Origin: a bacterium
Lineage (GTDB): Bacteria; Patescibacteriota; Minisyncoccia; Phycocordibacterales; UBA6899
Assembly (NCBI GenBank): GCA_043756865.1
Contig: JAYUQG010000024.1
Coordinates: forward strand, 91,259-155,258
Direction: 5' to 3'
Length of the DNA: 64,000 nt
Shown: positions 22,261 to 57,777 of the stretch, in pieces
Position numbering within the stretch: position 1 is the stretch's first letter
How the letters are laid out: the number at the start of each line of letters is the position of its first letter
The notes under the pieces: model-generated
What the model saw: only the letters and a program-made list of their open reading frames with translations
Told to the model about the DNA's origin: nothing
Database searches by the model: none
Position numbers and translations under genes: made by a program

Positions 22261-22938
22261 ATGATTTATTTCGATAATGTCACCAAGCTGTACTCCGACC
22301 ACGCAGCACTTTCCGATGTGACGTTTGGAATTCAAACGGGGGAGTTCGTCTCTATCGTGGGGCATTCTGGCGCCGGCAAGACTACTATGCTTCGTCTGCT
22401 GATGGTGGAAGACAAGCCGACAAGTGGGGCGATTTTTTTTGAATCTACAAATGTGCACCGTATCAAGTCTTCCAGCGTGCCAGAGTATCGACGCAGAATT
22501 GGGACGGTTTTTCAGGATTTCCGCTTGCTTCCAAATAAGACCGCTTATGAAAACATCGCCTTTGCCATGGAAGCTGCGGGACGCCCCGACGAGGAGATTC
22601 ACTCCGATGTTCCTCAAGTACTCGAACTTGTCGACTTATCATCGAAGGCACTGCATTTTCCTCACGAACTTTCAGGCGGTGAAAAACAGCGCGTCGCTAT
22701 CGCGCGCGCGATCATAAGCCAGCCTGATGTGTTGATAGCTGACGAGCCGACAGGAAACCTTGATCCCGTGAATACATACGACATCATCCAGATACTCAAA
22801 AAGATAAACGACATGGGAACGACGATTATTTTGACGACACACAATAAGGGCATTATTGATGCATTGAAACGACGGGTGATTACGATGGAGCATGGAAAGA
22901 TTATCCGTGACGACCAGCACGGCAAGTATATTCTCTAG
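22261..22938 (+). CDS. ftsE: Cell division ATP-binding protein FtsE (ABC ATPase)
   Basis: Walker [13 protein letters not shown] signature [14 protein letters not shown], Walker [13 protein letters not shown]. 225 aa. Confidence 0.9.
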
Positions 22939-22976
22939 TATTTGGGCGCACTACTCGCCCTTCCTTTGGCAAATTT

Positions 22977-23036
22977 GGAGGACGTATCACTCATACGCCC
23001 TCGCAAATATTGCCGCAGTCCAGGACTTCGTACTGC
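22977..23036. repeat. 54-nt intergenic repeat, copy C
   Basis: ggaggacgtatcactcatacgccctcgcaaatattgccgcagtccaggacttcgtactgc matches copy B at 784-839. Confidence 0.6.
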
Positions 23037-23221
23037 GACCAATTTTTATTAGCGGTATCCGCCTTAGAAAAATGAAGTACTCTTGTGGTGCATCCCAAAT
23101 ATTAGAGAATACACGAGTTCTTGCGCCTCGTAATGCGCTGAGAATATTAGAGAATATGCGTGACCGTGATTTTGGTGTGCTATATTTTGGATACATGGAA
23201 CAAGAAAACAGAGTCCAACAC

Positions 23222-32034: not shown

Positions 32035-32043
32035 CTATCCCGA

Positions 32044-32158
32044 GTTATGCACACCCACCCCTTGCGTAATTCTACACAGGGTGTATATTTCATTCATCGA
32101 GACGATACGTCGTCTCAATTTAACAAAGCCTGTCACCCGACGGGCTTTTTTACGCCTC
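32044..32158 (+). repeat. Direct repeat R (~115 bp) holding a promoter-like element, an 18-nt hairpin and an intrinsic terminator; left copy
   Basis: About 95% identical to 33721-33837. ttgcgt, 16 nt, (tgt)atattt. Hairpin gagacgatacgtcgtctc. Terminator agcctgtcacccgacgggctttttt. Confidence 0.7.
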
Positions 32159-32178
32159 GATAAAGTATTAAGTATTTC

Positions 32179-32226
32179 AGCGCGAAGCGCAGAGATAGTG
32201 AGTCCTCGAGCGACAACGCCAAATAG
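32179..32226 (+). repeat. Direct repeat X (48 nt), left copy
   Basis: agcgcgaagcgcagagatagtgagtcctcgagcgacaacgccaaatag matches 33666-33712 at roughly 80%. Confidence 0.6.
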
Positions 32227-33720: not shown

Positions 33721-33837
33721 AGTTATCCACACCCACCCCTTGCGTAATTCTACACAGGGTGTATATTTCATTCATCGAGACGATACGTCGTCTCAATTTA
33801 ACAAAGCCCGTCTCTGACGGGCTTTTTTACGTCTCCA
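33721..33837 (+). repeat. Direct repeat R', right copy (promoter-like element, hairpin, terminator)
   Basis: Near-identical to 32044-32158, including gagacgatacgtcgtctc and agcccgtctctgacgggcttttttacg. Confidence 0.7.
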
Positions 33838-33901
33838 CAACCGCCACAGCTTTTTCAAGAAAAAAACCGCCAACTGTTGATGGCGGTTTATTGTGTTTCT
33901 G

Positions 33902-35848: not shown

Positions 35849-35918
35849 GGGGGTAATACCTTGAAAAATAGACGCATTTGGCTATACTGCGTAGGTTAGT
35901 TGGATTGATATAACATAT

Positions 35919-35989
35919 TGCGGGTTCGTCTAATGGTAGGACGTTACCCTCTGGAGGTAAATATTGGGGTTCGAGTCCCTGACCCGCAG
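35919..35989 (+). tRNA. tRNA-Gln (anticodon CTG)
   Basis: TGCGGGTTCGTCTAATGGTAGGACGTTACCCTCTGGAGGTAAATATTGGGGTTCGAGTCCCTGACCCGCAG. U1-A72 pair and anticodon loop CTCTGGA. Confidence 0.85.
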
Positions 35990-36057
35990 TTACCACACAA
36001 AAACACTCTGCCAAGAGTGTTTTTGTTTTGTGGTAACTCGCGGGTCAGGGACTCGAA
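35971..36057. repeat. 87-nt palindrome: tRNA-Gln 3' end, a 20-bp hairpin, and an inverted copy of the tRNA 3' end
   Basis: tcgagtccctgacccgcag..ttaccacacaaaaacactctgccaagagtgtttttgttttgtggtaa..ctcgcgggtcagggactcgaa. Confidence 0.7.
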
Positions 36058-36152
36058 ATGCGTAAGGTGGTATACAAGACGAGCGAAGCGAGTGCTTGTC
36101 ACCGAGCCGGGGTCGAGAGCACTTTGTAGTTCGGTGGCCTTGCGCCGAAATA

Positions 36153-36186
36153 CTTAGTGACTCGTGACCGAGTCCCTGACCCGCAG
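36153..36186 (+). repeat. att-like direct repeat of the tRNA-Gln 3' end (18 of 19 nt identical)
   Basis: cttagtgactcgtgaccgagtccctgacccgcag, compared with the tRNA 3' end tcgagtccctgacccgcag. Confidence 0.6.
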
Positions 36187-36221
36187 CAATGTCGCAACGT
36201 CACCCTTTTTGGGTGATTTTG

Positions 36222-39933: not shown

Positions 39934-42681
39934 ATGCGTAAACTCGTCACCGTCTTATTCCTCGCCCTCACGCTTTTAGCTATCTCTCTGCCCACTGCGT
40001 TTGCAGCCTTCCCTGTTTTTCCTCCGACACTCAATAAAAGTCCCGACGCTGGGTATGCGGATGATTCAGTGAGCAGTGGAGTGGTGCCGAACATTGGTAC
40101 AACGAGTGCTACAGTCTTCACCTTTAAGGTGCTGTATGCACAGTCACAGAATCGTGAGCCATGGGACATTAATCTTGTTGTCACTGATGGAACAACCACT
40201 GCAATTCATGCGATGAATCATGATGTGGGTGCGAATGATCCAATATTACGCGATGGGAATTATGCGAATGGGGAACAGTACATCTTCGCTGCAACGCTCA
40301 CTCCAGGCATGTGGCAATACCACTTTGAAAGCGATTTCGGCGCACAACTTCCGGGAGCGGGGGAGTGGGATTTCACAGTGAGTGTCGATACGACTCCTTC
40401 GAAGTGTGGGGTGGATTGTTACTCAAATGTGCTTTTCCTGCCTGGACTTGAGGCGAGCAGATTATTTTGGACAGATCCAAATTGCATTTTCCTCAATTGC
40501 GAAAACCAACTATGGCTTGCCAATAGTGATACAGATGCAAAACAACTCTACCTTAATTCAAACGGCACAAGCATATTGAATGACATTTATACGAGTGTTG
40601 AACGAGGTGCGATCGACGAGGCGGCGATTCCTGTGGCGGGCACAAATATATATAAAACTTTTCTCAATAGTCTCAGTGAATGGAAGAATGAAGAGCATCT
40701 TATTGCCGACTACGCAGTAGCACCGTATGACTGGAGATTGTCAGTTGATGATGTGCTCACGAAGGGAATAAAAAACGGAGACAATATTTATTATGGTGGC
40801 GCGAGCGGGACATATATTCTTGATGAACTTTTACGCATGGCGTCCACGTCGAAAACGCAAAAAGTTACAATTGTTGCGCACTCAAATGGTGGATTAGTTG
40901 CAAAACAGTTAATGCTGAAGCTCCGCGAGCTAGGCAAGGAGGACTTGATTGACAGGCTCATTCTCGTCGCTGTTCCACAGGTTGGAACACCAAAGGCAGT
41001 CGGTGGACTACTTCACGGAACAGATCTTGGTCTCCCGTTCATTCTTGATGAGGAGCACGCTCGAACTCTTGGCGAGAATATGCCGAGTGCCTATGCATTG
41101 ATGCCATCTCAGAAATATTTCGAGACCATCAATCCGAATTCAATTACAAACAAACTCATTTCATTTACCGACTCACCGCTGTATGCGCCAGAGAGATCAC
41201 AGTACGGATTTTTGGTGAGCAACATGACGGAGCTTCGGGGCTATCTACTCGGCAGTGAAGGACGAACAGAGCCTGCCGATTCTGATCTCGATTCACCAAA
41301 TGTGCTGAAGTTCGAACTTCTCGATCAAGCATCATCAACCCATGCGCTACTCGATGAATGGCAACCTGCGAGTACGACCGAAGTGGTGCAAATTGGGGGA
41401 TGGGGAGAGAAAACCATATCCGGAGTCAGCTATTACACGGAACAACAACGTGATTGTGTGACTGTGCAGGGTCAGTTTGGCGCTAGTCACCAAGAGTGCG
41501 GTCCGTATTATGAGGTGAAAAAATACAAACCCAATTTTACGACAGAGGGCGATGGTACGGTGGTTGTTCCGAGTGCGCTTTGGATAGCGACAAGCACTTC
41601 GCAGGTTGAGAGGTATTGGGTGGATTTGAAAAAATACAATGATGAGAACATCGATAAAGACCACGCGAAAATACTGGAAGTGAGCACTCTCCTCGACTTC
41701 ATTAAGACCAAACTCACTAATGTGACGTCCTCACTCCCGAACTACATAGTAAACTCCGCATCGACGCTGAGCGACGCTCCAGACATAAAGTTTGTCTATA
41801 CACTCCACTCGCCGCTTTCGCTCAATCTCTACGACACTTTAGGAAATCATACGGGAATATCTACCACAACAGGTTACGTGGAGCAAAATATCTCAGGGTC
41901 TCGCTACGGCACATTCGGCGAAGTGAAGTATATTATTGCAAATGCCGATGTCGCTCAACATCTTGCGCTTCAGGGGTATGCGACAGGAACGTTCAGTTTG
42001 GATGTTGAAAAAGTACGTGGAGATATAATTCTCGCGAGCACCACCTTTGCTTCGGTGCCCGTATCTCCAAACACCATTGCGACATTCTCGCTTCCTGCAA
42101 ATGGTGACTTCTCATCTTCGACACCATTACGGGTTGACGTTGATGGAAATGGGGCAAATGATATCGTGCTCGTACCAGAGATTGGAGCAACTGTATATCC
42201 AGACTTCACTCCACCCGAAGCGATATTCTCATTTAATGCAATTACTAAAGATGTTGTGATTTTGGGGGAAGATAACGTTGGGACAACCTCAACACTAATC
42301 ACACCAACGTCGACCACCATCACTGACCAGTCGGGAAATACACTCAGCATCCCATTCATCAAGTTCAAAGAGAAGCCAACTAAATTAAAAATTGCATTCG
42401 ATACGTTAATTTATAACGGAGTAGCGACCGCAACACCATGGGTGACTATTGAGTATGAATGGGTGATTAAGAATAACGGCATGCTCCAGTCACTTTCACA
42501 GGATATTCGCATCAAGGGTGCGCGCCGTGTGACTGCAGACTATTCTTTGAGCAAGGGTGAAACCAAGATTATGGACAGAATCAGGGAGGATGGGGAAAAG
42601 AGTGTCACAAAAACTGTAAAAACGGGTGTAACCGTGCTTCCGCTGTCGACAAAAGCAGGAGCACTCGACGTGACGTATTGA
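39934..42681 (+). CDS. Large secreted alpha/beta-hydrolase (lipase/esterase GxSxG) protein with a long beta-rich C-terminal region
   Basis: Signal peptide MRKLVTVLFLALTLLAISLPTAFA. Nucleophile elbow VTIVAHSNGGLVAKQ. 915 aa. C-terminal about 400 aa rich in T/S/G/V repeats. Confidence 0.6.
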   Translation: MRKLVTVLFLALTLLAISLPTAFAAFPVFPPTLNKSPDAGYADDSVSSGVVPNIGTTSATVFTFKVLYAQSQNREPWDINLVVTDGTTTAIHAMNHDVGANDPILRDGNYANGEQYIFAATLTPGMWQYHFESDFGAQLPGAGEWDFTVSVDTTPSKCGVDCYSNVLFLPGLEASRLFWTDPNCIFLNCENQLWLANSDTDAKQLYLNSNGTSILNDIYTSVERGAIDEAAIPVAGTNIYKTFLNSLSEWKNEEHLIADYAVAPYDWRLSVDDVLTKGIKNGDNIYYGGASGTYILDELLRMASTSKTQKVTIVAHSNGGLVAKQLMLKLRELGKEDLIDRLILVAVPQVGTPKAVGGLLHGTDLGLPFILDEEHARTLGENMPSAYALMPSQKYFETINPNSITNKLISFTDSPLYAPERSQYGFLVSNMTELRGYLLGSEGRTEPADSDLDSPNVLKFELLDQASSTHALLDEWQPASTTEVVQIGGWGEKTISGVSYYTEQQRDCVTVQGQFGASHQECGPYYEVKKYKPNFTTEGDGTVVVPSALWIATSTSQVERYWVDLKKYNDENIDKDHAKILEVSTLLDFIKTKLTNVTSSLPNYIVNSASTLSDAPDIKFVYTLHSPLSLNLYDTLGNHTGISTTTGYVEQNISGSRYGTFGEVKYIIANADVAQHLALQGYATGTFSLDVEKVRGDIILASTTFASVPVSPNTIATFSLPANGDFSSSTPLRVDVDGNGANDIVLVPEIGATVYPDFTPPEAIFSFNAITKDVVILGEDNVGTTSTLITPTSTTITDQSGNTLSIPFIKFKEKPTKLKIAFDTLIYNGVATATPWVTIEYEWVIKNNGMLQSLSQDIRIKGARRVTADYSLSKGETKIMDRIREDGEKSVTKTVKTGVTVLPLSTKAGALDVTY

Positions 42682-42709: not shown

Positions 42710-43090
42710 ATGGAGATATTGCAAAAATCTAGTTTTAAGTTTTTCTTGACGACAGCCGTCTTGTTGGCTGCAGTCTTTTTGGTCGGAATTTTTACTGGCG
42801 CACACCTCATGAACTTAGATGGCACCCTCCAAACAGTGGGGTCTGTACTACTTTCCCTCTTCGTGTGTTCTTTTTTTGCGTTATTTGTGAAGCCAGAAGT
42901 ATTTAAGTCATGGCTACACTATATGTATTGGTGGATTGTTCCACTACTCTTCGCATACAGTCTCACATTAAGTCGTGGGGGCGGGTTCAGTGGCATTAAT
43001 CCTTGGGAACCCCTGTTTCCAATTTTTCTCTTTTTGTTTGTCCTCTCGACTCCGATTTATCTCTATATCAAATCTAAAAGGCTGAAATAG
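42710..43090 (+). CDS. Hypothetical membrane protein
   Basis: 126 aa with four TM helices. Confidence 0.45.
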   Translation: MEILQKSSFKFFLTTAVLLAAVFLVGIFTGAHLMNLDGTLQTVGSVLLSLFVCSFFALFVKPEVFKSWLHYMYWWIVPLLFAYSLTLSRGGGFSGINPWEPLFPIFLFLFVLSTPIYLYIKSKRLK

Positions 43091-43149
43091 TGCGGAAAGA
43101 AATTAATAAAAAACGGCTTTATTACGAGGTCGTTTTGGAAAGAGGAGAT

Positions 43150-43320
43150 TTTAATCCCTCAATTCCCCTCAGCTTGCTGGGGGGTATCCGCTAAGGAAGA
43201 GTTTGAGAAACCGCTGGTTTCTCAAGATGATTCAGAGCGGAGCTCCTATGATACCCCGCCGATACGGAGCGGTAGCGGAGTGAGGGTAGCAGCTTGCTGC
43301 GGGGAGCTTCATTATTCTCA
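43150..43320 (+). other. Structured GC-rich noncoding region (candidate ncRNA or 5' leader) upstream of the collagen-like gene
   Basis: Hairpins cccctcagcttgctgggggg, ttgagaaaccgctggtttctcaa and gcagcttgctgc. The motif cagcttgctg occurs twice. No ORF of 60 aa or more in any frame. Confidence 0.35.
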
Positions 43321-43423
43321 GCGATCATCGTCTCGGGCTGTGTGTATTTTCTCGTGAGGAAGTAGGGAAAGGCCTATTATAAAAAGACGTGCACGTTTTT
43401 CCTCCCTTTCCTCTATACTCGAT

Positions 43424-44034
43424 ATGTCCCAACCCCCCTATCTTGCACCAACAGAAAATGGGTGTAAGTTTACTCATGCGATAAAAAAGAAATTCTCGCT
43501 TGCCTCTGGAGCACTCATGATTCTCGGTGGGTTATTCACTGCAGAGGGTTGCCATAGCGGCGGGTGGTTCGCCGTTTGACCGACTTGCGGCTGCACTCGG
43601 AGAGCTGCGGAGAGACCTCTCCAGCCTCGAAGTGTGCATTAACAACTTGGTACTTGTACCCGGTCCGCAGGGACCTCGAGGTATTCAGGGAGAGGTTGGA
43701 CCGCAGGGTTTACAGGGTGCTCCTGGTACACAGGGAGCGGTCGGTCGACTGATTACTTACCGTGTGACCTTACCATTCGCCGACATCGCGCTTAATTCTT
43801 CGGCTGCTGCAATCGCAAGGTGCGAACGCGGTGACCAGATACTCTGGTGGGTACTTCCTTCAGGGCTCGACTACTCAGATAGTGGACACAAGGCCTGACT
43901 ATATGGATTGGAACGGAACAAGTTTCGTCGAAGGATGGAAAGTCGTAGGTAGCAATACGAATCCTCCGGCAGGAATTCCCTCAAGCATCGGACTCATTGC
44001 CGCATACGCGCTGTGTAATGACGCCACGCCGTAG
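43424..44034 (+). pseudogene. Collagen-like (Gly-X-Y) repeat protein gene split across three reading frames (frameshifted pseudogene or sequencing errors)
   Basis: Frame a, 43424-43576, has signal-peptide-like MSQ..KKKFSLASGALMILGGLFTAEGC. Frame b, 43527-43898, carries GPQGPRGIQGEVGPQGLQGAPGTQGAVG. Frame c, 43831-44034, is a C-terminal domain. The three frames run consecutively and overlap. Confidence 0.5.
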
Positions 44035-44178
44035 TCTTGCTCGTTTATCAAAAAAACCGCTACTTGGCGTTGCCGCTCGAAGACTCACTTTTTTTGCGCG
44101 CTTTGCGCGGTAGATACAAAAAGCCATCACGTGGTTTTTTGGTAACACGGTCTCTATGTATTTTGCTAGAATACATTA

Positions 44179-44529
44179 ATGGAAAAACACCGTATCTACA
44201 CAATGAGCTTTGCTAGTGTTTATCCATTGTATGTCGCCAAGGCAGAGAAAAAGGGGCGTACGAAAAAAGAGGTGGATGAGGTCATCCGTTGGCTGACGAG
44301 GTACAGCCAGAAAGAATTGGGCACGCAACTGAAAAAACAAACAGACTTCGAGACGTTTTTTGGTGAGGCACCCGAAATGAATCCTGCGCGAGCATTAATT
44401 ACCGGTGTTATTTGTGGTGTGCGATTAGAAGATATTGAGGAAGCGCTTATGCGCGAAATCCGTTATCTGGATAAACTTATCGACGAGCTGGCTAAGGGGC
44501 GTACGATGGAGAGGATTTTGCGAAAGTAA
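44179..44529 (+). CDS. DUF2200 family protein
   Basis: [73 protein letters not shown] matches the DUF2200 pattern. Confidence 0.65.
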
Positions 44530-44577
44530 CACATCATCAGATGATGGAGTCACCAAGCTAAATGTTACAATTCCAAT

Positions 44578-44967
44578 ATGACAAAAAATAAAACAAAGTA
44601 TGTCGACGGGTTCGTGCTTATTGTTCCTCAAAAAAATGTAGCAGCTTACAAAAAAATGGCACAGAGTGCAGGGAAAATGTGGATGCGCTGTGGCGCTCTT
44701 GAGTACGTGGAATGTATGGGAGACGACATGTATCCACCATCCATGGGCATGCAGTCACTCACTTTTCCTAAATTGGCAAACGCGAAAAAGGGCGAGACGG
44801 TGTGGTTCTCCTACATTACGTACAAGTCTCGTGCGCATCGTGATCAGGTGAACAAAAAAGTATACGCAGAAATGAATAAAGTTGCTGCAAAGTACAAGAA
44901 CATGAAGATGCCCTTTGACATGAAGAAAATGGCATTCGGAGGCTTTAAGGTGATGGTACACAACTAA
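44578..44967 (+). CDS. DUF1428 family protein
   Basis: KYVDGFVLIVPQKNVAAYKKMAQSAGKMWMRCGALEYVECMGDD..FPKLA..GETVWFSYITYKSRAHRD..FGGFKVMV matches the DUF1428 pattern. Confidence 0.65.
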   Translation: MTKNKTKYVDGFVLIVPQKNVAAYKKMAQSAGKMWMRCGALEYVECMGDDMYPPSMGMQSLTFPKLANAKKGETVWFSYITYKSRAHRDQVNKKVYAEMNKVAAKYKNMKMPFDMKKMAFGGFKVMVHN

Positions 44968-44972
44968 TCTCT

Positions 44973-45380
44973 ATGCCGAAATCAGTCACAAAGTTACACG
45001 CAGACATCGAAGCATACAACAAGGCACAGTCTCGTGACGACAAAGCGATTTGCGTCATGTTGGCAGAAGAGATAATGCACAATCTTCCCGATGCTGAAAA
45101 TAAAATCTGGCACAGGCATCCTGTATGGTTTCTGGATGGAAATCCTGTTGTGGGGTATAGCAAGCTGAAGGATTCCGTCCGTCTCCTGTTTTGGAGCGGG
45201 CAGTCTTTTGATGAAGCGGGTTTAACGAATGAGGGAAGTTTTAAGGCAGCGGACATGCGCTATACGGAACTGTCACAGATAAACAAAAAAGACCTCAAGC
45301 GCTGGCTAAGGAAATCCGAGGATATTCAATGGGACTACAAAAACATTGTCAAAAGAAAGGGTGTGCTGATTAGATTGTAA
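44973..45380 (+). CDS. Hypothetical protein (DUF1801/YdhG-like?)
   Basis: 135 aa reading ..WHRHPVWFLDGNPVVGYSKLKDSVRLLFWSGQSF..QWDYKNIVKRKG. Family assignment is uncertain. Confidence 0.4.
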   Translation: MPKSVTKLHADIEAYNKAQSRDDKAICVMLAEEIMHNLPDAENKIWHRHPVWFLDGNPVVGYSKLKDSVRLLFWSGQSFDEAGLTNEGSFKAADMRYTELSQINKKDLKRWLRKSEDIQWDYKNIVKRKGVLIRL

Positions 45381-45482
45381 GCAGCGTTGTGGGTGCATAA
45401 TAACTTCAATATTTGCGAGGGAAAAATTTTGACAACCAGCCGTACGTATTCAAGACGGGAATTCTTTTGATATAATTAGTGC

Positions 45483-45830
45483 ATGCCTGATTTCGTCGTG
45501 AATACGTTTATTTCACTCGAGTCCAACGAACTGAGTGGAATTACATTGCTTGCAGCATTGGGGATCGTGTTTGTATTTTTTTGTTATTGGGGGATGCGAC
45601 TACTTCTGCCTTTGTTCCAAACAAATAAGCTACATATTTCAAAAAGACAAAAAATGATTTATGCATGGGGAGTCGTGGGTATTCTTTCACTTATTTTTTT
45701 AGGTATGATCAGAGAAAAGTTCCTTCCTTGGGTAGATAGCGATATCTTTATTTTCACATTCTCAGCAATTATTGTGTCGGGTTGTATCTATTTTTTGTTG
45801 AAGAAGGAGGATAAGACTATGCAAAAGTGA
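45483..45830 (+). CDS. Hypothetical membrane protein
   Basis: 115 aa with three TM helices. Confidence 0.4.
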   Translation: MPDFVVNTFISLESNELSGITLLAALGIVFVFFCYWGMRLLLPLFQTNKLHISKRQKMIYAWGVVGILSLIFLGMIREKFLPWVDSDIFIFTFSAIIVSGCIYFLLKKEDKTMQK

Positions 45831-45980
45831 ACTACTGTTTATTCAACCATTCACTCGTTCTCCCTTACGTTTGCTTTAGCATGCACTACGGGACCACGTA
45901 AGATCTGGGGGTGTCACCATGCCCATTCCGCTTAATGATATATTCTGCTACTCTCATTTCATAAATCTAATTTTATACAC

Positions 45981-46424
45981 ATGGCACGCGTCAGCACTTA
46001 TCTCAATTTCACTCGTTCGACGGAAGAAGCATTCAATTTTTACCAGTCAATCTTTGGAGGTACGTTCACGGGCGGAATCGCACGACTCGGTGATGCGCCT
46101 GCACAAGAGGGCATGCCCCCACTTGCTGATGGAGACAAAAATCTCGTTATGCATGTTGCACTCCCGATTCTCGGCGGTCACGTACTCATGGGCACCGATG
46201 CTCCAGAATCACTGGGATTTAAAGTCAGCTTTGGGAACAATATCTATATTAACCTTGAGCCGGACACTCGTACCCAAACAAAGAAATTGTTTGATGCGTT
46301 GTCGCAAGGAGGTAAAATTGAAATGGAGTTACAGGAAATGTTTTGGGGAGACTACTATGGTTCATGCACGGACAAATATGGGGTGCACTGGATGTTTAAT
46401 TGTAGTACTGCCCTTTCCAAATAA
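45981..46424 (+). CDS. VOC-family protein (PhnB / glyoxalase-bleomycin resistance-like)
   Basis: YLNFTRSTEEAFNFYQSIFGG..MHVALPILGGHVLMGTD..MELQEMFWGDYYGSCTDKYGVHWMF is PhnB-like. Confidence 0.7.
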   Translation: MARVSTYLNFTRSTEEAFNFYQSIFGGTFTGGIARLGDAPAQEGMPPLADGDKNLVMHVALPILGGHVLMGTDAPESLGFKVSFGNNIYINLEPDTRTQTKKLFDALSQGGKIEMELQEMFWGDYYGSCTDKYGVHWMFNCSTALSK

Positions 46425-49120: not shown

Positions 49121-49708
49121 ATGTTACATATATATCTCGTACGACACGGCGAGGACCAAGACAATATGCACGGGGTATTGAATGGCCGCAGGGATCAATC
49201 ACTGACGTTGCGCGGTGAAGCGCAGGCTATGAGCGCTGCAAAGCAACTACGCGCACTGGATATACCTTTTGCTGTTGTATACACATCACCACTTGTGCGT
49301 GCCGTCAAAACTGCGGAAATTATTACCAATGAGCTTCGCGCGAAAAGGGCGGAGATACTCTCGGACCTTATTGAGAGAGATTTTGGAGTGATGACTGGGG
49401 AATTGGTTACACGAATTCCCGAATTGTGTGGGCCGAACATTCTCGTGACAGAAAAGAATACATATTTTCTCTCTGCAAAAAAAGCAGAGGCATTTCCTCA
49501 GATGATGACACGGGCACGCCGATTGCTAAAACGCATTGCCTTACGTACGCCGAATGGAGCGGTTATTCTGGTTACTCATGGCGATATCGGGAAGATGATT
49601 TACGCGAGTTACTACGAGTTAGACTGGAAAGAAGTGCTCGAATCGTTACATTTCGACAATTGCGATGTTCTGCTCCTTTCGCCAGATGCAGACCTCGACG
49701 AACCTTAG
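49121..49708 (+). CDS. Histidine phosphatase family protein (phosphoglycerate mutase-like)
   Basis: N-terminal LVRHGEDQDN catalytic RHG motif, and C-terminal VTHGD. Confidence 0.8.
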   Translation: MLHIYLVRHGEDQDNMHGVLNGRRDQSLTLRGEAQAMSAAKQLRALDIPFAVVYTSPLVRAVKTAEIITNELRAKRAEILSDLIERDFGVMTGELVTRIPELCGPNILVTEKNTYFLSAKKAEAFPQMMTRARRLLKRIALRTPNGAVILVTHGDIGKMIYASYYELDWKEVLESLHFDNCDVLLLSPDADLDEP

Positions 49709-49867
49709 AGCCTATCCCAGCAGGAACTTTCCTGCTGCAACACGCGATCTTCAATAAAAACACGCAAAACCTTTGTCGTCTTGTCTCGACAAGCCTTCGC
49801 AGGTTTTGCATGTTTTTATAATAAAGCTCTCGCGTTTCGCTACGGAGGTCCTACTGGGATAGGCTCT
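49707..49867. mobile_element. MITE-like 161-bp element with about 19-bp terminal inverted repeats and internal hairpins
   Basis: The left end agagcctatcccagcagga and the right end tcctactgggataggctct are a perfect 14-bp TIR that extends to about 19 bp. Internal hairpins include cagcaggaactttcctgctg and gcaaaacct..aggttttgc. No ORF. Confidence 0.45.
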
Positions 49868-56884: not shown

Positions 56885-57175
56885 ATGCCAACAGCAAAAC
56901 CAGCAGCAAAAGCAAAACCAGCTGCAAAAGCAAATTCCGCGTTTATGAAACCGCTTGCAGTGAGCGAAGAACTCGCCGCAGTGGTCGGAACGGGCCCGCT
57001 GCCTCGCTCAGAAGTCGTCAAGAAACTCTGGGTGTATATCAAGAAGCATGATCTTCAGGATCCAAAAAACAAGCGCAATATCATCGCTGACGTCAATCTC
57101 CTCCCTGTATTTGGTGGAAAGGATGTGGTCAACATGTTTGAAATGACGAAACTCGTTTCAAAACATCTCTCATAA
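56885..57175 (+). CDS. SWIB/MDM2 domain protein
   Basis: N-terminus is a Lys/Ala-rich tail. ..LAVSEELAAVVGTGPLPRSEVVKKLWVYIKKHDLQDPKNKRNIIADVNLLPVFGG..MFEMTKLVSKHL matches the SWIB pattern. Confidence 0.75.
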   Translation: MPTAKPAAKAKPAAKANSAFMKPLAVSEELAAVVGTGPLPRSEVVKKLWVYIKKHDLQDPKNKRNIIADVNLLPVFGGKDVVNMFEMTKLVSKHLS

Positions 57176-57243
57176 TTGCCATCTTACGGTAATGCACAAA
57201 TTGCTCCAATTGGAGCGATTTTTGTTACGCCTCGTTGGCGCAG

Positions 57244-57777
57244 ATGTTGTGTTACCATGAATTTATGAAGGAAAAGGTGTTTATTGTTGACTATGCATCC
57301 GGATTTCTTCCTGAGATTTGTGCCCCAGACCACATCTCGGTTGCGCGCACTCAAGCTGCACTTCGTGCCTTCCACGCATACCCCAATGCGAAGATTGTGC
57401 TTGGGGCGGGCCTTCGTGAGCGCACTATGGGTTGCGGTCCGCTTGCAGAAATGATGCATACCGCTCTCACTCTGCAGGGGATACCCGAGGATGCTATTTT
57501 AGAGAACGCACTTGGGCACGATACACTTTCGGAAACCGAAGCTGCATATGCGGTCATCGTGAAACAGGGAGGGGGAACAATAGTCTGTGCAACCTCGCGC
57601 TATCACATGCGCCGCGTGTGGTGTTTGTGGTTTTTTCGTTTCGGAATTACTCCAAAAATGTTCCCCGCGGAGATTCGTCCCAGTAGTCAAGAGCAATTTC
57701 GCGAGTATTGCAAGCTCCCTGTTGATTGTCTACGTGCATTAATCCATCGATTCACCAATGAAACCTCAAGCCAATAA
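57244..57777 (+). CDS. YdcF/DUF218 family protein
   Basis: ..IVLGAGLRER..LTLQGIPEDAILENALGHDTLSETEAAYAVI..CATSRYHMRRV.. is DUF218-like. Confidence 0.5.
   Translation: MLCYHEFMKEKVFIVDYASGFLPEICAPDHISVARTQAALRAFHAYPNAKIVLGAGLRERTMGCGPLAEMMHTALTLQGIPEDAILENALGHDTLSETEAAYAVIVKQGGGTIVCATSRYHMRRVWCLWFFRFGITPKMFPAEIRPSSQEQFREYCKLPVDCLRALIHRFTNETSSQ

Follow-up and report, generated by a model that had tools for sequence, protein, structure and literature searches.

Scl1 and Scl2 of Streptococcus, BclA of Bacillus, C1q and adiponectin, and resistin are the closest known counterparts of the protein described here, and all have the same stalk-plus-head or collagen-like surface plan. Resistin itself consists of a coiled-coil stalk and a small beta head, an arrangement to which that of our protein family is analogous. 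Here we report on a collagen-like gene and the hairpin-rich DNA preceding it (positions 43091 to 44034) in a stretch of 64,000 nucleotides (nt) from a Parcubacteria-like bacterium, referred to throughout as the window. It is highly probable that the gene at 43476-44034 once encoded a small secreted surface protein and became a pseudogene recently, and that the 330 nt upstream are mosaic scrap and not a leader. The family shows no sequence relationship to the heads of Scl, BclA or C1q; it also differs from these systems in being tiny, in including a member (P0004) entirely without a collagen part, and in that the window copy is dead.

The closest parallels to the upstream DNA come from the IS200/IS605 superfamily of transposable elements, the published features of which include subterminal hairpins, a lack of terminal inverted repeats and specific 4-bp targets such as GT|GA (PMC4810608, PMC10055086). 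Non-coding palindrome-associated transposable elements (PATEs) and repetitive extragenic palindromes (REPs) are derivatives of this superfamily (PMC4810608, PMC10055086), and PATEs have been reported often to encode omega-RNAs (PMC10055086).

Three open reading frames (ORFs) on the plus strand overlap serially at the locus: 43424-43579 (51 amino acids (aa), frame 2), 43527-43898 (123 aa, frame 0) and 43831-44034 (67 aa, frame 1). An earlier reading of this DNA from its letters alone, hereafter the sequence-only reading, had noticed the series and suggested one gene with two frameshifts. The frames are indeed pieces of one collagen-like protein gene, although the frame-breaking indels number three, not two. 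A search of ~5.8 billion proteins with the frame-corrected, joined translation, a check which that reading had proposed, yielded a continuous protein with intact homologues. Two full-length relatives, P0001 (203 aa, 65% identity, E 3e-73) and P0002 (213 aa, 60%, E 1.7e-68), are each encoded in a single frame and align over ~90% of the length of the query, and P0004 (154 aa) is a single-frame relative that lacks the collagen part. All three align end to end with the frame-corrected translation, with the pieces in the same order; the search also recovered the window's own middle ORF (P0003). The parts of the broken gene are as follows.

43476 (ancestral ATG) to 44034 (TAG stop at 44032-44034), plus strand: collagen-like pseudogene, delimited by alignment to intact homologues
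Between 43479 and 43498, plus strand: lesion (i), a gain of 2 nt; the ancestral ATG now reads ATG CGA TAA
43539/43540, plus strand: lesion (ii), a loss of 2 nt, placed by codon-level DNA alignment
43842/43843, plus strand: lesion (iii), a loss of 2 nt within the invariant ILSGGY motif
43662-43751, plus strand: uninterrupted Gly-X-Y collagen-type run in frame 0, 10 triplets counting the final GRL
43743-44031, plus strand: beta-sandwich head domain of ~95 aa at the C-terminus; it contains a conserved Cys pair, is interrupted by lesion (iii) and bears all six of the substitutions at invariant sites described below
43440-43475, plus strand: promoter-like or 5'-untranslated block ATCTTGCAC...GTAAGTTTACTC, conserved with homologous genes

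The ATG at 43476 aligns with the start codon of the homologues, and its distance to the Leu-Ala-Ser-Gly codons is 23 nt compared to 21 in the homologues, whose second in-frame Met has become TCG in the window copy. At the site of lesion (iii) the related locus L004 reads CTCTCT and the window CTCT. The frame path observed along the gene, 0 -> 2 -> 0 -> 1, is exactly that predicted from +2, -2 and -2. Lesion (i) places a stop two codons behind the ancestral start codon and lesion (iii) severs the most conserved strand of the head domain; together the three indels make a full-length product impossible. The first frame had been described as signal-peptide-like, and such a sequence is present; however, its N-terminal 17 codons (43424-43475) are a spurious translation of promoter-like DNA, because the homologues share this sequence in their 5' flanks. 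This promoter-like block, ATCTTGCAC...TTTACTC, lies within a DNA alignment with L004 and L006 that reaches ~57 nt 5' of their start codons, and we infer a promoter function for 43440-43475. The Gly-X-Y run, earlier counted as nine triplets, is borne out as a run, with a tenth triplet if the final GRL is included. It is ~23-27 codons shorter than in the two closest homologues and scores 22.5 bits against the Pfam Collagen model (PF01391, cutoff 27.2), an annotation that P0002 carries in precomputed form and for which the distant relatives P0030 and P0036 reach the cutoff (27.2 and 30.2 bits).

Decay is also apparent from substitutions. The window copy has changed at six sites that are invariant in the five other core members of the family that were compared, and five of the six changes cluster in the motif GSTANPPAGILPGIG; the corresponding numbers are 0 for P0001 and 1 for P0002. 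The ratio of non-synonymous to synonymous substitution rates (dN/dS) is 0.13-0.18 in pairs that include the window compared to 0.084 for L004-L006, a crude contrast that is indicative only, as dS is saturated (~1.3). We conclude that the gene was under selection through most of its history and was inactivated relatively recently. A decaying pseudogene, one of three explanations offered by the sequence-only reading, is thereby the best account of the intact single-frame homologues, the three indels and the changes at invariant sites, and the decay is of an ordinary kind. The locus should accordingly be annotated as one pseudogene, in place of three small ORFs plus a non-coding RNA (ncRNA).

The second of these explanations, base-calling or assembly errors in a gene that is intact in the organism, has in its favour that small indels are a classic type of error and that assembled contigs, not reads, were compared. 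Reproducibility was judged from contigs assembled independently from three sequencing runs in the Logan collection, each 100% identical to the window: L001 (SRR23617209) over 43252-44869, L002 (SRR22198343) over 43426-44456 and L003 (SRR23617208) over 43512-44456. Lesions (ii) and (iii) are covered by all three contigs and lesion (i) by L001 and L002 only. Base-calling error is unlikely because these independently assembled runs give identical DNA. None of the three indels (0/3) falls in a homopolymer of 4 nt or more, and an indel artefact could not explain the excess of substitutions at invariant residues. Other series of overlapping ORFs in the window (pilins, the prepilin peptidase PilD, LigA, GatC, GatA) are separate intact genes; the assembly is therefore not prone to frameshifts. 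With all this, the error explanation is scarcely credible. Two considerations weigh on the other side of the decay reading: the genome and the three runs may share their site or population of origin, and the dN/dS contrast is weak as evidence of decay at a dS of ~1.3.

The third explanation, regulated slippage, can be widened to any expression through programmed ribosomal frameshifting or a slipped-strand (phase-variation) switch. The nearest described system is prfB (RF2), in which the programmed +1 site is CUU UGA C. The two broken frames in the window likewise terminate in NNY UGA C, where slipping forward by +1 would give GAC and lead into the next frame; lesion (iii) can moreover be read as (CT)3 -> (CT)2 relative to L004. 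The resemblance to prfB ends there. Homology changes frame at 43539/40 and 43842/3 and not at the UGA codons (43577, 43896), there is no Shine-Dalgarno-like stimulator at the right spacing, 3 nt upstream, and re-pairing from GUU to UUU would be poor. A shift at the second stop would exchange the invariant SGGYFLQGST.QIV.TRP for unrelated residues, all homologues are single-frame and unshifted, and the ancestral start codon is itself out of frame. As to slippage, the locus has no homopolymer or repeat tracts of note, its GGG and CTCT being too short for frequent slippage, and no intact variant is present in the contigs of the three runs. We therefore regard recoding and phase variation as very improbable and retain the pseudogene. 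An alternative genetic code was considered as well: TGA is the codon at each of the two internal stops, yet the pieces lie in different frames, which reading through UGA cannot join. The final stop of the gene is TAG in the window and TAA at the same position in L004.

In its intact form the protein would comprise a signal peptide, a short coiled coil, a collagen Gly-X-Y stalk and a ~95-aa disulfide-bonded beta-sandwich head. Family members have in common a signal peptide that looks cleavable, a short segment of heptad-like pattern (GSPF..L...I.EL), 0 to ~20 Gly-X-Y triplets and the Cys-pair head. When 1.84 billion representatives were searched exhaustively with a profile of the head domain (C-terminal ~95 residues), no more than 4 clusters scored at E<1e-30; the matches beyond them were remote relatives with collagen repeats, and proteins in which the head domain is present three times in tandem. 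Pfam has no family that covers the head, the PDB no relative by sequence, Foldseek gave no significant match for it, and a tblastn search of 50,697 phage records found no phage relative. The sequence-only reading had offered a phage tail fibre or a surface adhesin; the first does not fit a head without phage match in a chromosomal context of small genes, while for the intact protein a secreted or surface location is plausible. The by-product of the analysis is a small family from Parcubacteria-like bacteria with an uncurated head resembling resistin or the C-terminal domain (CTD) of PCSK9 on a coiled-coil/collagen stalk. In organisms living on other cells, such stalk-plus-head proteins are candidate factors of cell-surface attachment.

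Turning to the upstream DNA, the structural features that had been noticed there are real. The repeated hairpin sequence CAGCTTGCTG occurs exactly twice in the window (43170 and 43290), where shuffles expect 0.16 and 0/100 reach 2, and the perfect 10-bp stem TTGAGAAACC/GGTTTCTCAA is formed by 43203-43212 and 43216-43225. Compared to shuffles, 43091-43423 folds with a z of -3.5 on the plus strand and -1.7 on the minus strand, and 43140-43319 with a z of -4.4, roughly the top 2% of 1066 windows of 180 nt; this does not make it an outlier, as tRNA regions and others reach -6 to -10. Its coding content is limited to short ORFs and one 87-codon stop-free stretch that lacks a start codon, with no protein homologue at E<=10 in any frame and no Pfam match, so that the description of the region as ORF-free was essentially right. 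The Rfam scan suggested for an upstream ncRNA found nothing relevant: with Rfam 15 over 42900-44250, at gathering thresholds and at E<=10, there were only two chance-level matches (E 4.6 and 7), both to eukaryotic families.

The region had been proposed as a structured leader or ncRNA, and only the structure has held up. A functional cis-regulatory leader or small RNA gene of this locus would account for folding better than shuffles (z -3.5 to -4.4), and the covariation in the hairpin stems of the family described below implies that the structure is under selection somewhere. The region is, however, absent upstream of every homologue, where spacers of ~100-140 nt resemble the promoter-like block only, and absent at the orthologous position behind the preceding 126-aa gene in relatives. 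One of its two hairpins has lost an arm, a gene remnant separates the element from the promoter-like block, and other members of the family adjoin unrelated genes. Together with the lack of a relevant Rfam match at E<=10, these points render a leader or a local RNA gene improbable. Readthrough extension or decayed coding sequence in 43091-43352 was likewise rejected: the 126-aa frame stays open for 87 codons past its TAG, but its orthologue in L009 likewise terminates directly behind the final membrane helix, and homologues are lacking in every frame.

The upstream 330 nt are instead a mosaic in which a repeat element in decay and what is left of a gene lie in front of the old promoter-like block; its parts are as follows.

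43091-43164, plus strand: unassigned spacer directly after the stop of the 126-aa gene; the left boundary of the element lies somewhere inside
43142-43160, plus strand: small hairpin GAGGAGAUUUUAAUCCCUC within the spacer
43165-43184, plus strand: left-end hairpin box CCCCUCAG-CUUG-CUGGGGGG, 8 bp including one U-G, an exact match to the family pattern
43185-43284, plus strand: element interior, unique to the window copy
43285-43313, plus strand: degenerate right end GCAGCUUGCUGCGGGG with tail AGCUUCAUU; the CCCC 5' arm is gone and only 4 bp are possible
43314-43413, plus strand: remnant of a paralogue of ORF 45483-45830 (3' end plus downstream DNA), found by local alignment

The spacer is similar to nothing else that was fetched. 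In the interior, the 10-bp stem (43203-43225, 3-nt loop) is nested in a CCGCU/AGCGG stem (43188-43192, 43236-43240).

The two hairpin boxes led to a dispersed repeat family. Metagenome contigs were scanned with the pattern CAGCTTGCTGNGGGG-N(90-120)-CAGCTTGCTGNGGGG, which specifies 28 bases and for which the chance expectation is inferred to be far below one. Two CAGCTTGCTGnGGGG boxes recur at the window's spacing in 85 metagenome contigs and in 0 viral contigs. Units of the family are ~150 nt long and carry a CCCCnCAG-CUUG-CUGnGGGG hairpin at both ends in direct orientation; interiors differ between subtypes and the ends are conserved. The right-end consensus is GAUR-hairpin-AGnUUCAYU, the left end usually being stem-GRAUR-hairpin-AKGAA-stem. 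Near-identical copies of a 154-nt subtype are found in 27 distinct flanks, with TCAC at both junctions in 27/27 and a T after the right end in 24/27, and head-to-tail arrays also occur. The genes that flank the copies are housekeeping genes unrelated to one another (209 Pfam families among 150 ORFs). At the left end, compensatory changes are seen both in the outer stem and at the variable pair of the hairpin, with 95.6% of cells paired and a covariation score of 0.385 compared to 0.086 +/- 0.02 in shuffles (0/500 reach it) and <=0.09 in slid controls; the variable hairpin pair is G-C 95 times, C-G 28, A-T 12 and T-A 2. By its distribution and junctions, the family behaves like a site-specific mobile element. 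No match to the elements was obtained in Rfam with 28 family loci, IS605-associated families included, or by BLAST against plasmids and phages, and a full-text literature search by hairpin sequence found nothing. A CRISPR-repeat reading of the boxes was rejected, as their spacing is irregular and interiors are conserved among copies and are not unique spacers; the GAUR/AKGAA internal loop does not fit a k-turn consensus.

On the evidence of its ends, 43165-43313 appears to be a degenerate single copy of this ~150-nt hairpin-bounded element. The 23 nt at 43289-43311 are 100% identical to the right end of Type 1, the commonest subtype, and the window tail AGCTTCATT fits the family consensus AGnTTCAYT. 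Only this tail, which lies outside the search pattern, is independent evidence of membership, because the boxes were the search pattern. A right-end covariance model (R1) was built from the family without the window copy. When 43281-43313 is aligned to it, the CCCC 5' arm is seen to be deleted, a loss of 4 nt (15.8 bits, E 0.08); the best match of the model in the window is the left hairpin (25 bits, E 1.5e-4). Several points speak against membership. The flanks of the left end are CAATT / TATCC and not the commonest GAUR...AKGAA, and the left boundary is undefined; resemblance to the family is confined to the two boxes and the right tail, with no similarity in the interior by BLAST against the 85 loci; and the copy is single in 64 kb, with none in 76 kb of related Parcubacteria loci. 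The right end also looked hammerhead-like by eye (CUGAUG...), a candidate dismissed on inspection as core A9 and GAAA are absent. The SRR23617209 assembly breaks inside the element (43252-43278), where the end of L008 and the start of L001 overlap by 27 nt; the break may be due to low coverage, or to branching of the assembly graph where sequence is repeated.

The stretch directly behind the element, 43314-43413, aligns with 45758-45856, which comprises the final 24 codons of ORF 45483-45830 and its 3' flank, with a score of 32 compared to 10.7 +/- 1.3 (maximum 15) for shuffles. It is read as a gene remnant because of this significant similarity and because the frame-1 tail LFSAIIVSGCVYFLVRK* (43312-43365), to be compared with TFSAIIVSGCIYFLLKKEDK... 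in the intact paralogue, is still encoded; the source was a small membrane-protein paralogue. Similarity sets in with the first base beyond the element's right end, where the intact paralogue reads TTTTCAC|ATTCTCAGC. Insertion into the paralogue and the order of events are what we infer from this arrangement: the element would have inserted at a TCAC site in the former paralogue gene, the 5' part of which would have been lost later.

How the family moves can be judged by comparison with IS200/IS605 derivatives. Like PATEs and REPs of that superfamily, it is short and non-coding, has no terminal inverted repeats, and carries the same imperfect hairpin near both ends on one strand, its boxes always being direct. 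Its junction TCAC is GTGA on the other strand, the GT|GA target type reported for IS605/ISC elements, and like PATEs it is present as many near-identical copies in unrelated flanks and in head-to-tail arrays. A difference from the PATE feature set is that dispersal holds for the family and not for the window genome, where the one copy is degenerate and solitary. Because of the hairpins, the absence of inverted repeats, the fixed tetranucleotide, the lack of coding sequence, the many copies and the tandem insertion, we rate as the likeliest mechanism that the family is PATE-like, related to IS200/IS605 and moved as single-stranded DNA by a Y1 transposase in trans, an assignment that we would nevertheless put no higher than an even chance.

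Against it stand the following points. No Y1 transposase or TnpB was seen adjoining any family member, neither having been specifically searched for, and no transposase family is among the top 25 Pfam families in the 150 neighbouring ORFs, again without a targeted search. No guide/target complementarity of the IS608 type is evident in the family. The TCAC at the two junctions might also belong to the element itself; the proxy for an empty site is the window paralogue, TTCAC|ATTCTCAGC, only, next to the TCAC at both junctions of 27/27 subtype copies. Some of the 85 matches, those in ~67-nt tandem arrays on large contigs (e.g. L022, L040), may be unrelated satellite.

Another possibility is that the hairpin-bounded family acts mainly as RNA, as a multi-copy small RNA or as an omega-RNA-like guide module carried by PATEs. 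The conserved architecture, the covarying stems and the conserved internal-loop motifs would suit such a role, as would the omega-RNAs often encoded by PATEs (PMC10055086). Yet none of the 28 family loci matched an Rfam family, those associated with IS605 included, and no TnpB was seen nearby, though it was not specifically searched for. Among 157 hairpins the variable pair is G-T 0 times on the analysed strand and A-C 10 times, which lends no support to RNA-type wobble tolerance there. That the family acts mainly as RNA is thus unlikely, without being negligible, and the PATE-like mobile element is retained as the leading account.

If the family is a PATE of the IS200/IS605 lineage, its ends could help to find the matching transposase and TnpB/omega-RNA systems in uncultured bacteria. 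As a repeat it is widespread, shows clear stem covariation and was not found in Rfam, plasmids or the searchable literature. The collagen-stalk protein family and the hairpin-ended repeat family are modestly novel by-products. A bolder proposal is offered only tentatively: the CCCCnCAG-CUUG-CUGnGGGG elements may be an undescribed structured, site-specific (TCAC), non-autonomous mobile family, widespread in bacteria of sediment, wetland and groundwater and possibly with a functional RNA, of which the window copy would be a fossil in a streamlined genome of the candidate phyla radiation (CPR); and the proteins that combine a collagen stalk with a resistin-like head may form a new class of surface adhesin in the CPR.

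The arrays of ~67 nt are found on L022, L039, L040, L046, L049, L050, L082, L088, L092, L094 and L095 (up to 233 kb). Their unit contains CCCAGCTTGCTGGGGGG and a second hairpin CCGGCTTATGG...CCATAAATCCTCGG, and is either kin of the elements or shares the box only. Two contig pairs, L034/L084 and L087/L090, share one flank of the 154-nt element and differ in the other, which suggests recombination between copies or assembly joins across the repeat.

The pseudogene has as neighbours in the window DUF2200, DUF1428, DUF1801, a glyoxalase/PhnB-like protein and an LCAT-like lipase. Homologous loci carry the same small genes (DUF2200, DUF1428, DUF1801, PhnB-like) in shuffled order, and the block at 43476-46424, which holds these four and the collagen-like gene, is rearranged among the close relatives L004, L005 and L006. 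DUF2200 lies upstream on either strand in L004 and L006 and downstream in the window, and of these loci the window alone has the 115-aa ORF 45483-45830. The block looks like a shuffled patch of accessory genes.

On the other side, the mosaic is preceded by an LCAT-like lipase gene (39934-42681) and the intact gene of the 126-aa membrane protein (42710-43090). Orthologues of this pair in relatives (L010-L017) are 75-83% identical in DNA, and in all of them homology ends exactly at 43090; the upstream region is therefore a synteny breakpoint filled with lineage-specific DNA. The pair itself, a large secreted LCAT/lipase-like protein and a ~126-aa four-helix membrane protein, is conserved in Parcubacteria-like relatives (L009-L017) down to 34% identity. 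A search of reference genomes with the LCAT-like gene found one distant Parcubacteria locus only, at 34% identity; a metagenome scan with the 126-aa protein gave no match, its homologues having come via the protein database. In L010 (2804-2935) and L011 (524-655) a mini-ORF follows the orthologous 126-aa gene and encodes a lone membrane-helix tail, MTWFLTGLFFVVSLILIAYKSFRLRSKQS*, so that remnants of small membrane-protein paralogues recur at the same junction in other lineages.

Elsewhere in the window, folding is far stronger than at 43140-43319 in 33721-33900 (plus strand), 49681-49860 (minus), 22921-23100 (minus), 32041-32220 (plus) and 57121-57300 (plus), with z of -6 to -7.7; the segment 33776-33976 has sub-threshold Rfam matches only. 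Folding is also very strong, with a z of -6.7 to -10, in 35918-36190, where Rfam matches the tRNA only. Two further copies of the 3' end of tRNA-Gln(ctg), GAGTCCCTGACCCGCAG, are present here, one in direct orientation ~200 nt downstream (36171-36187) and one inverted at ~36038-36058, and the region looks like the att-site scar of an element integrated into the tRNA gene.

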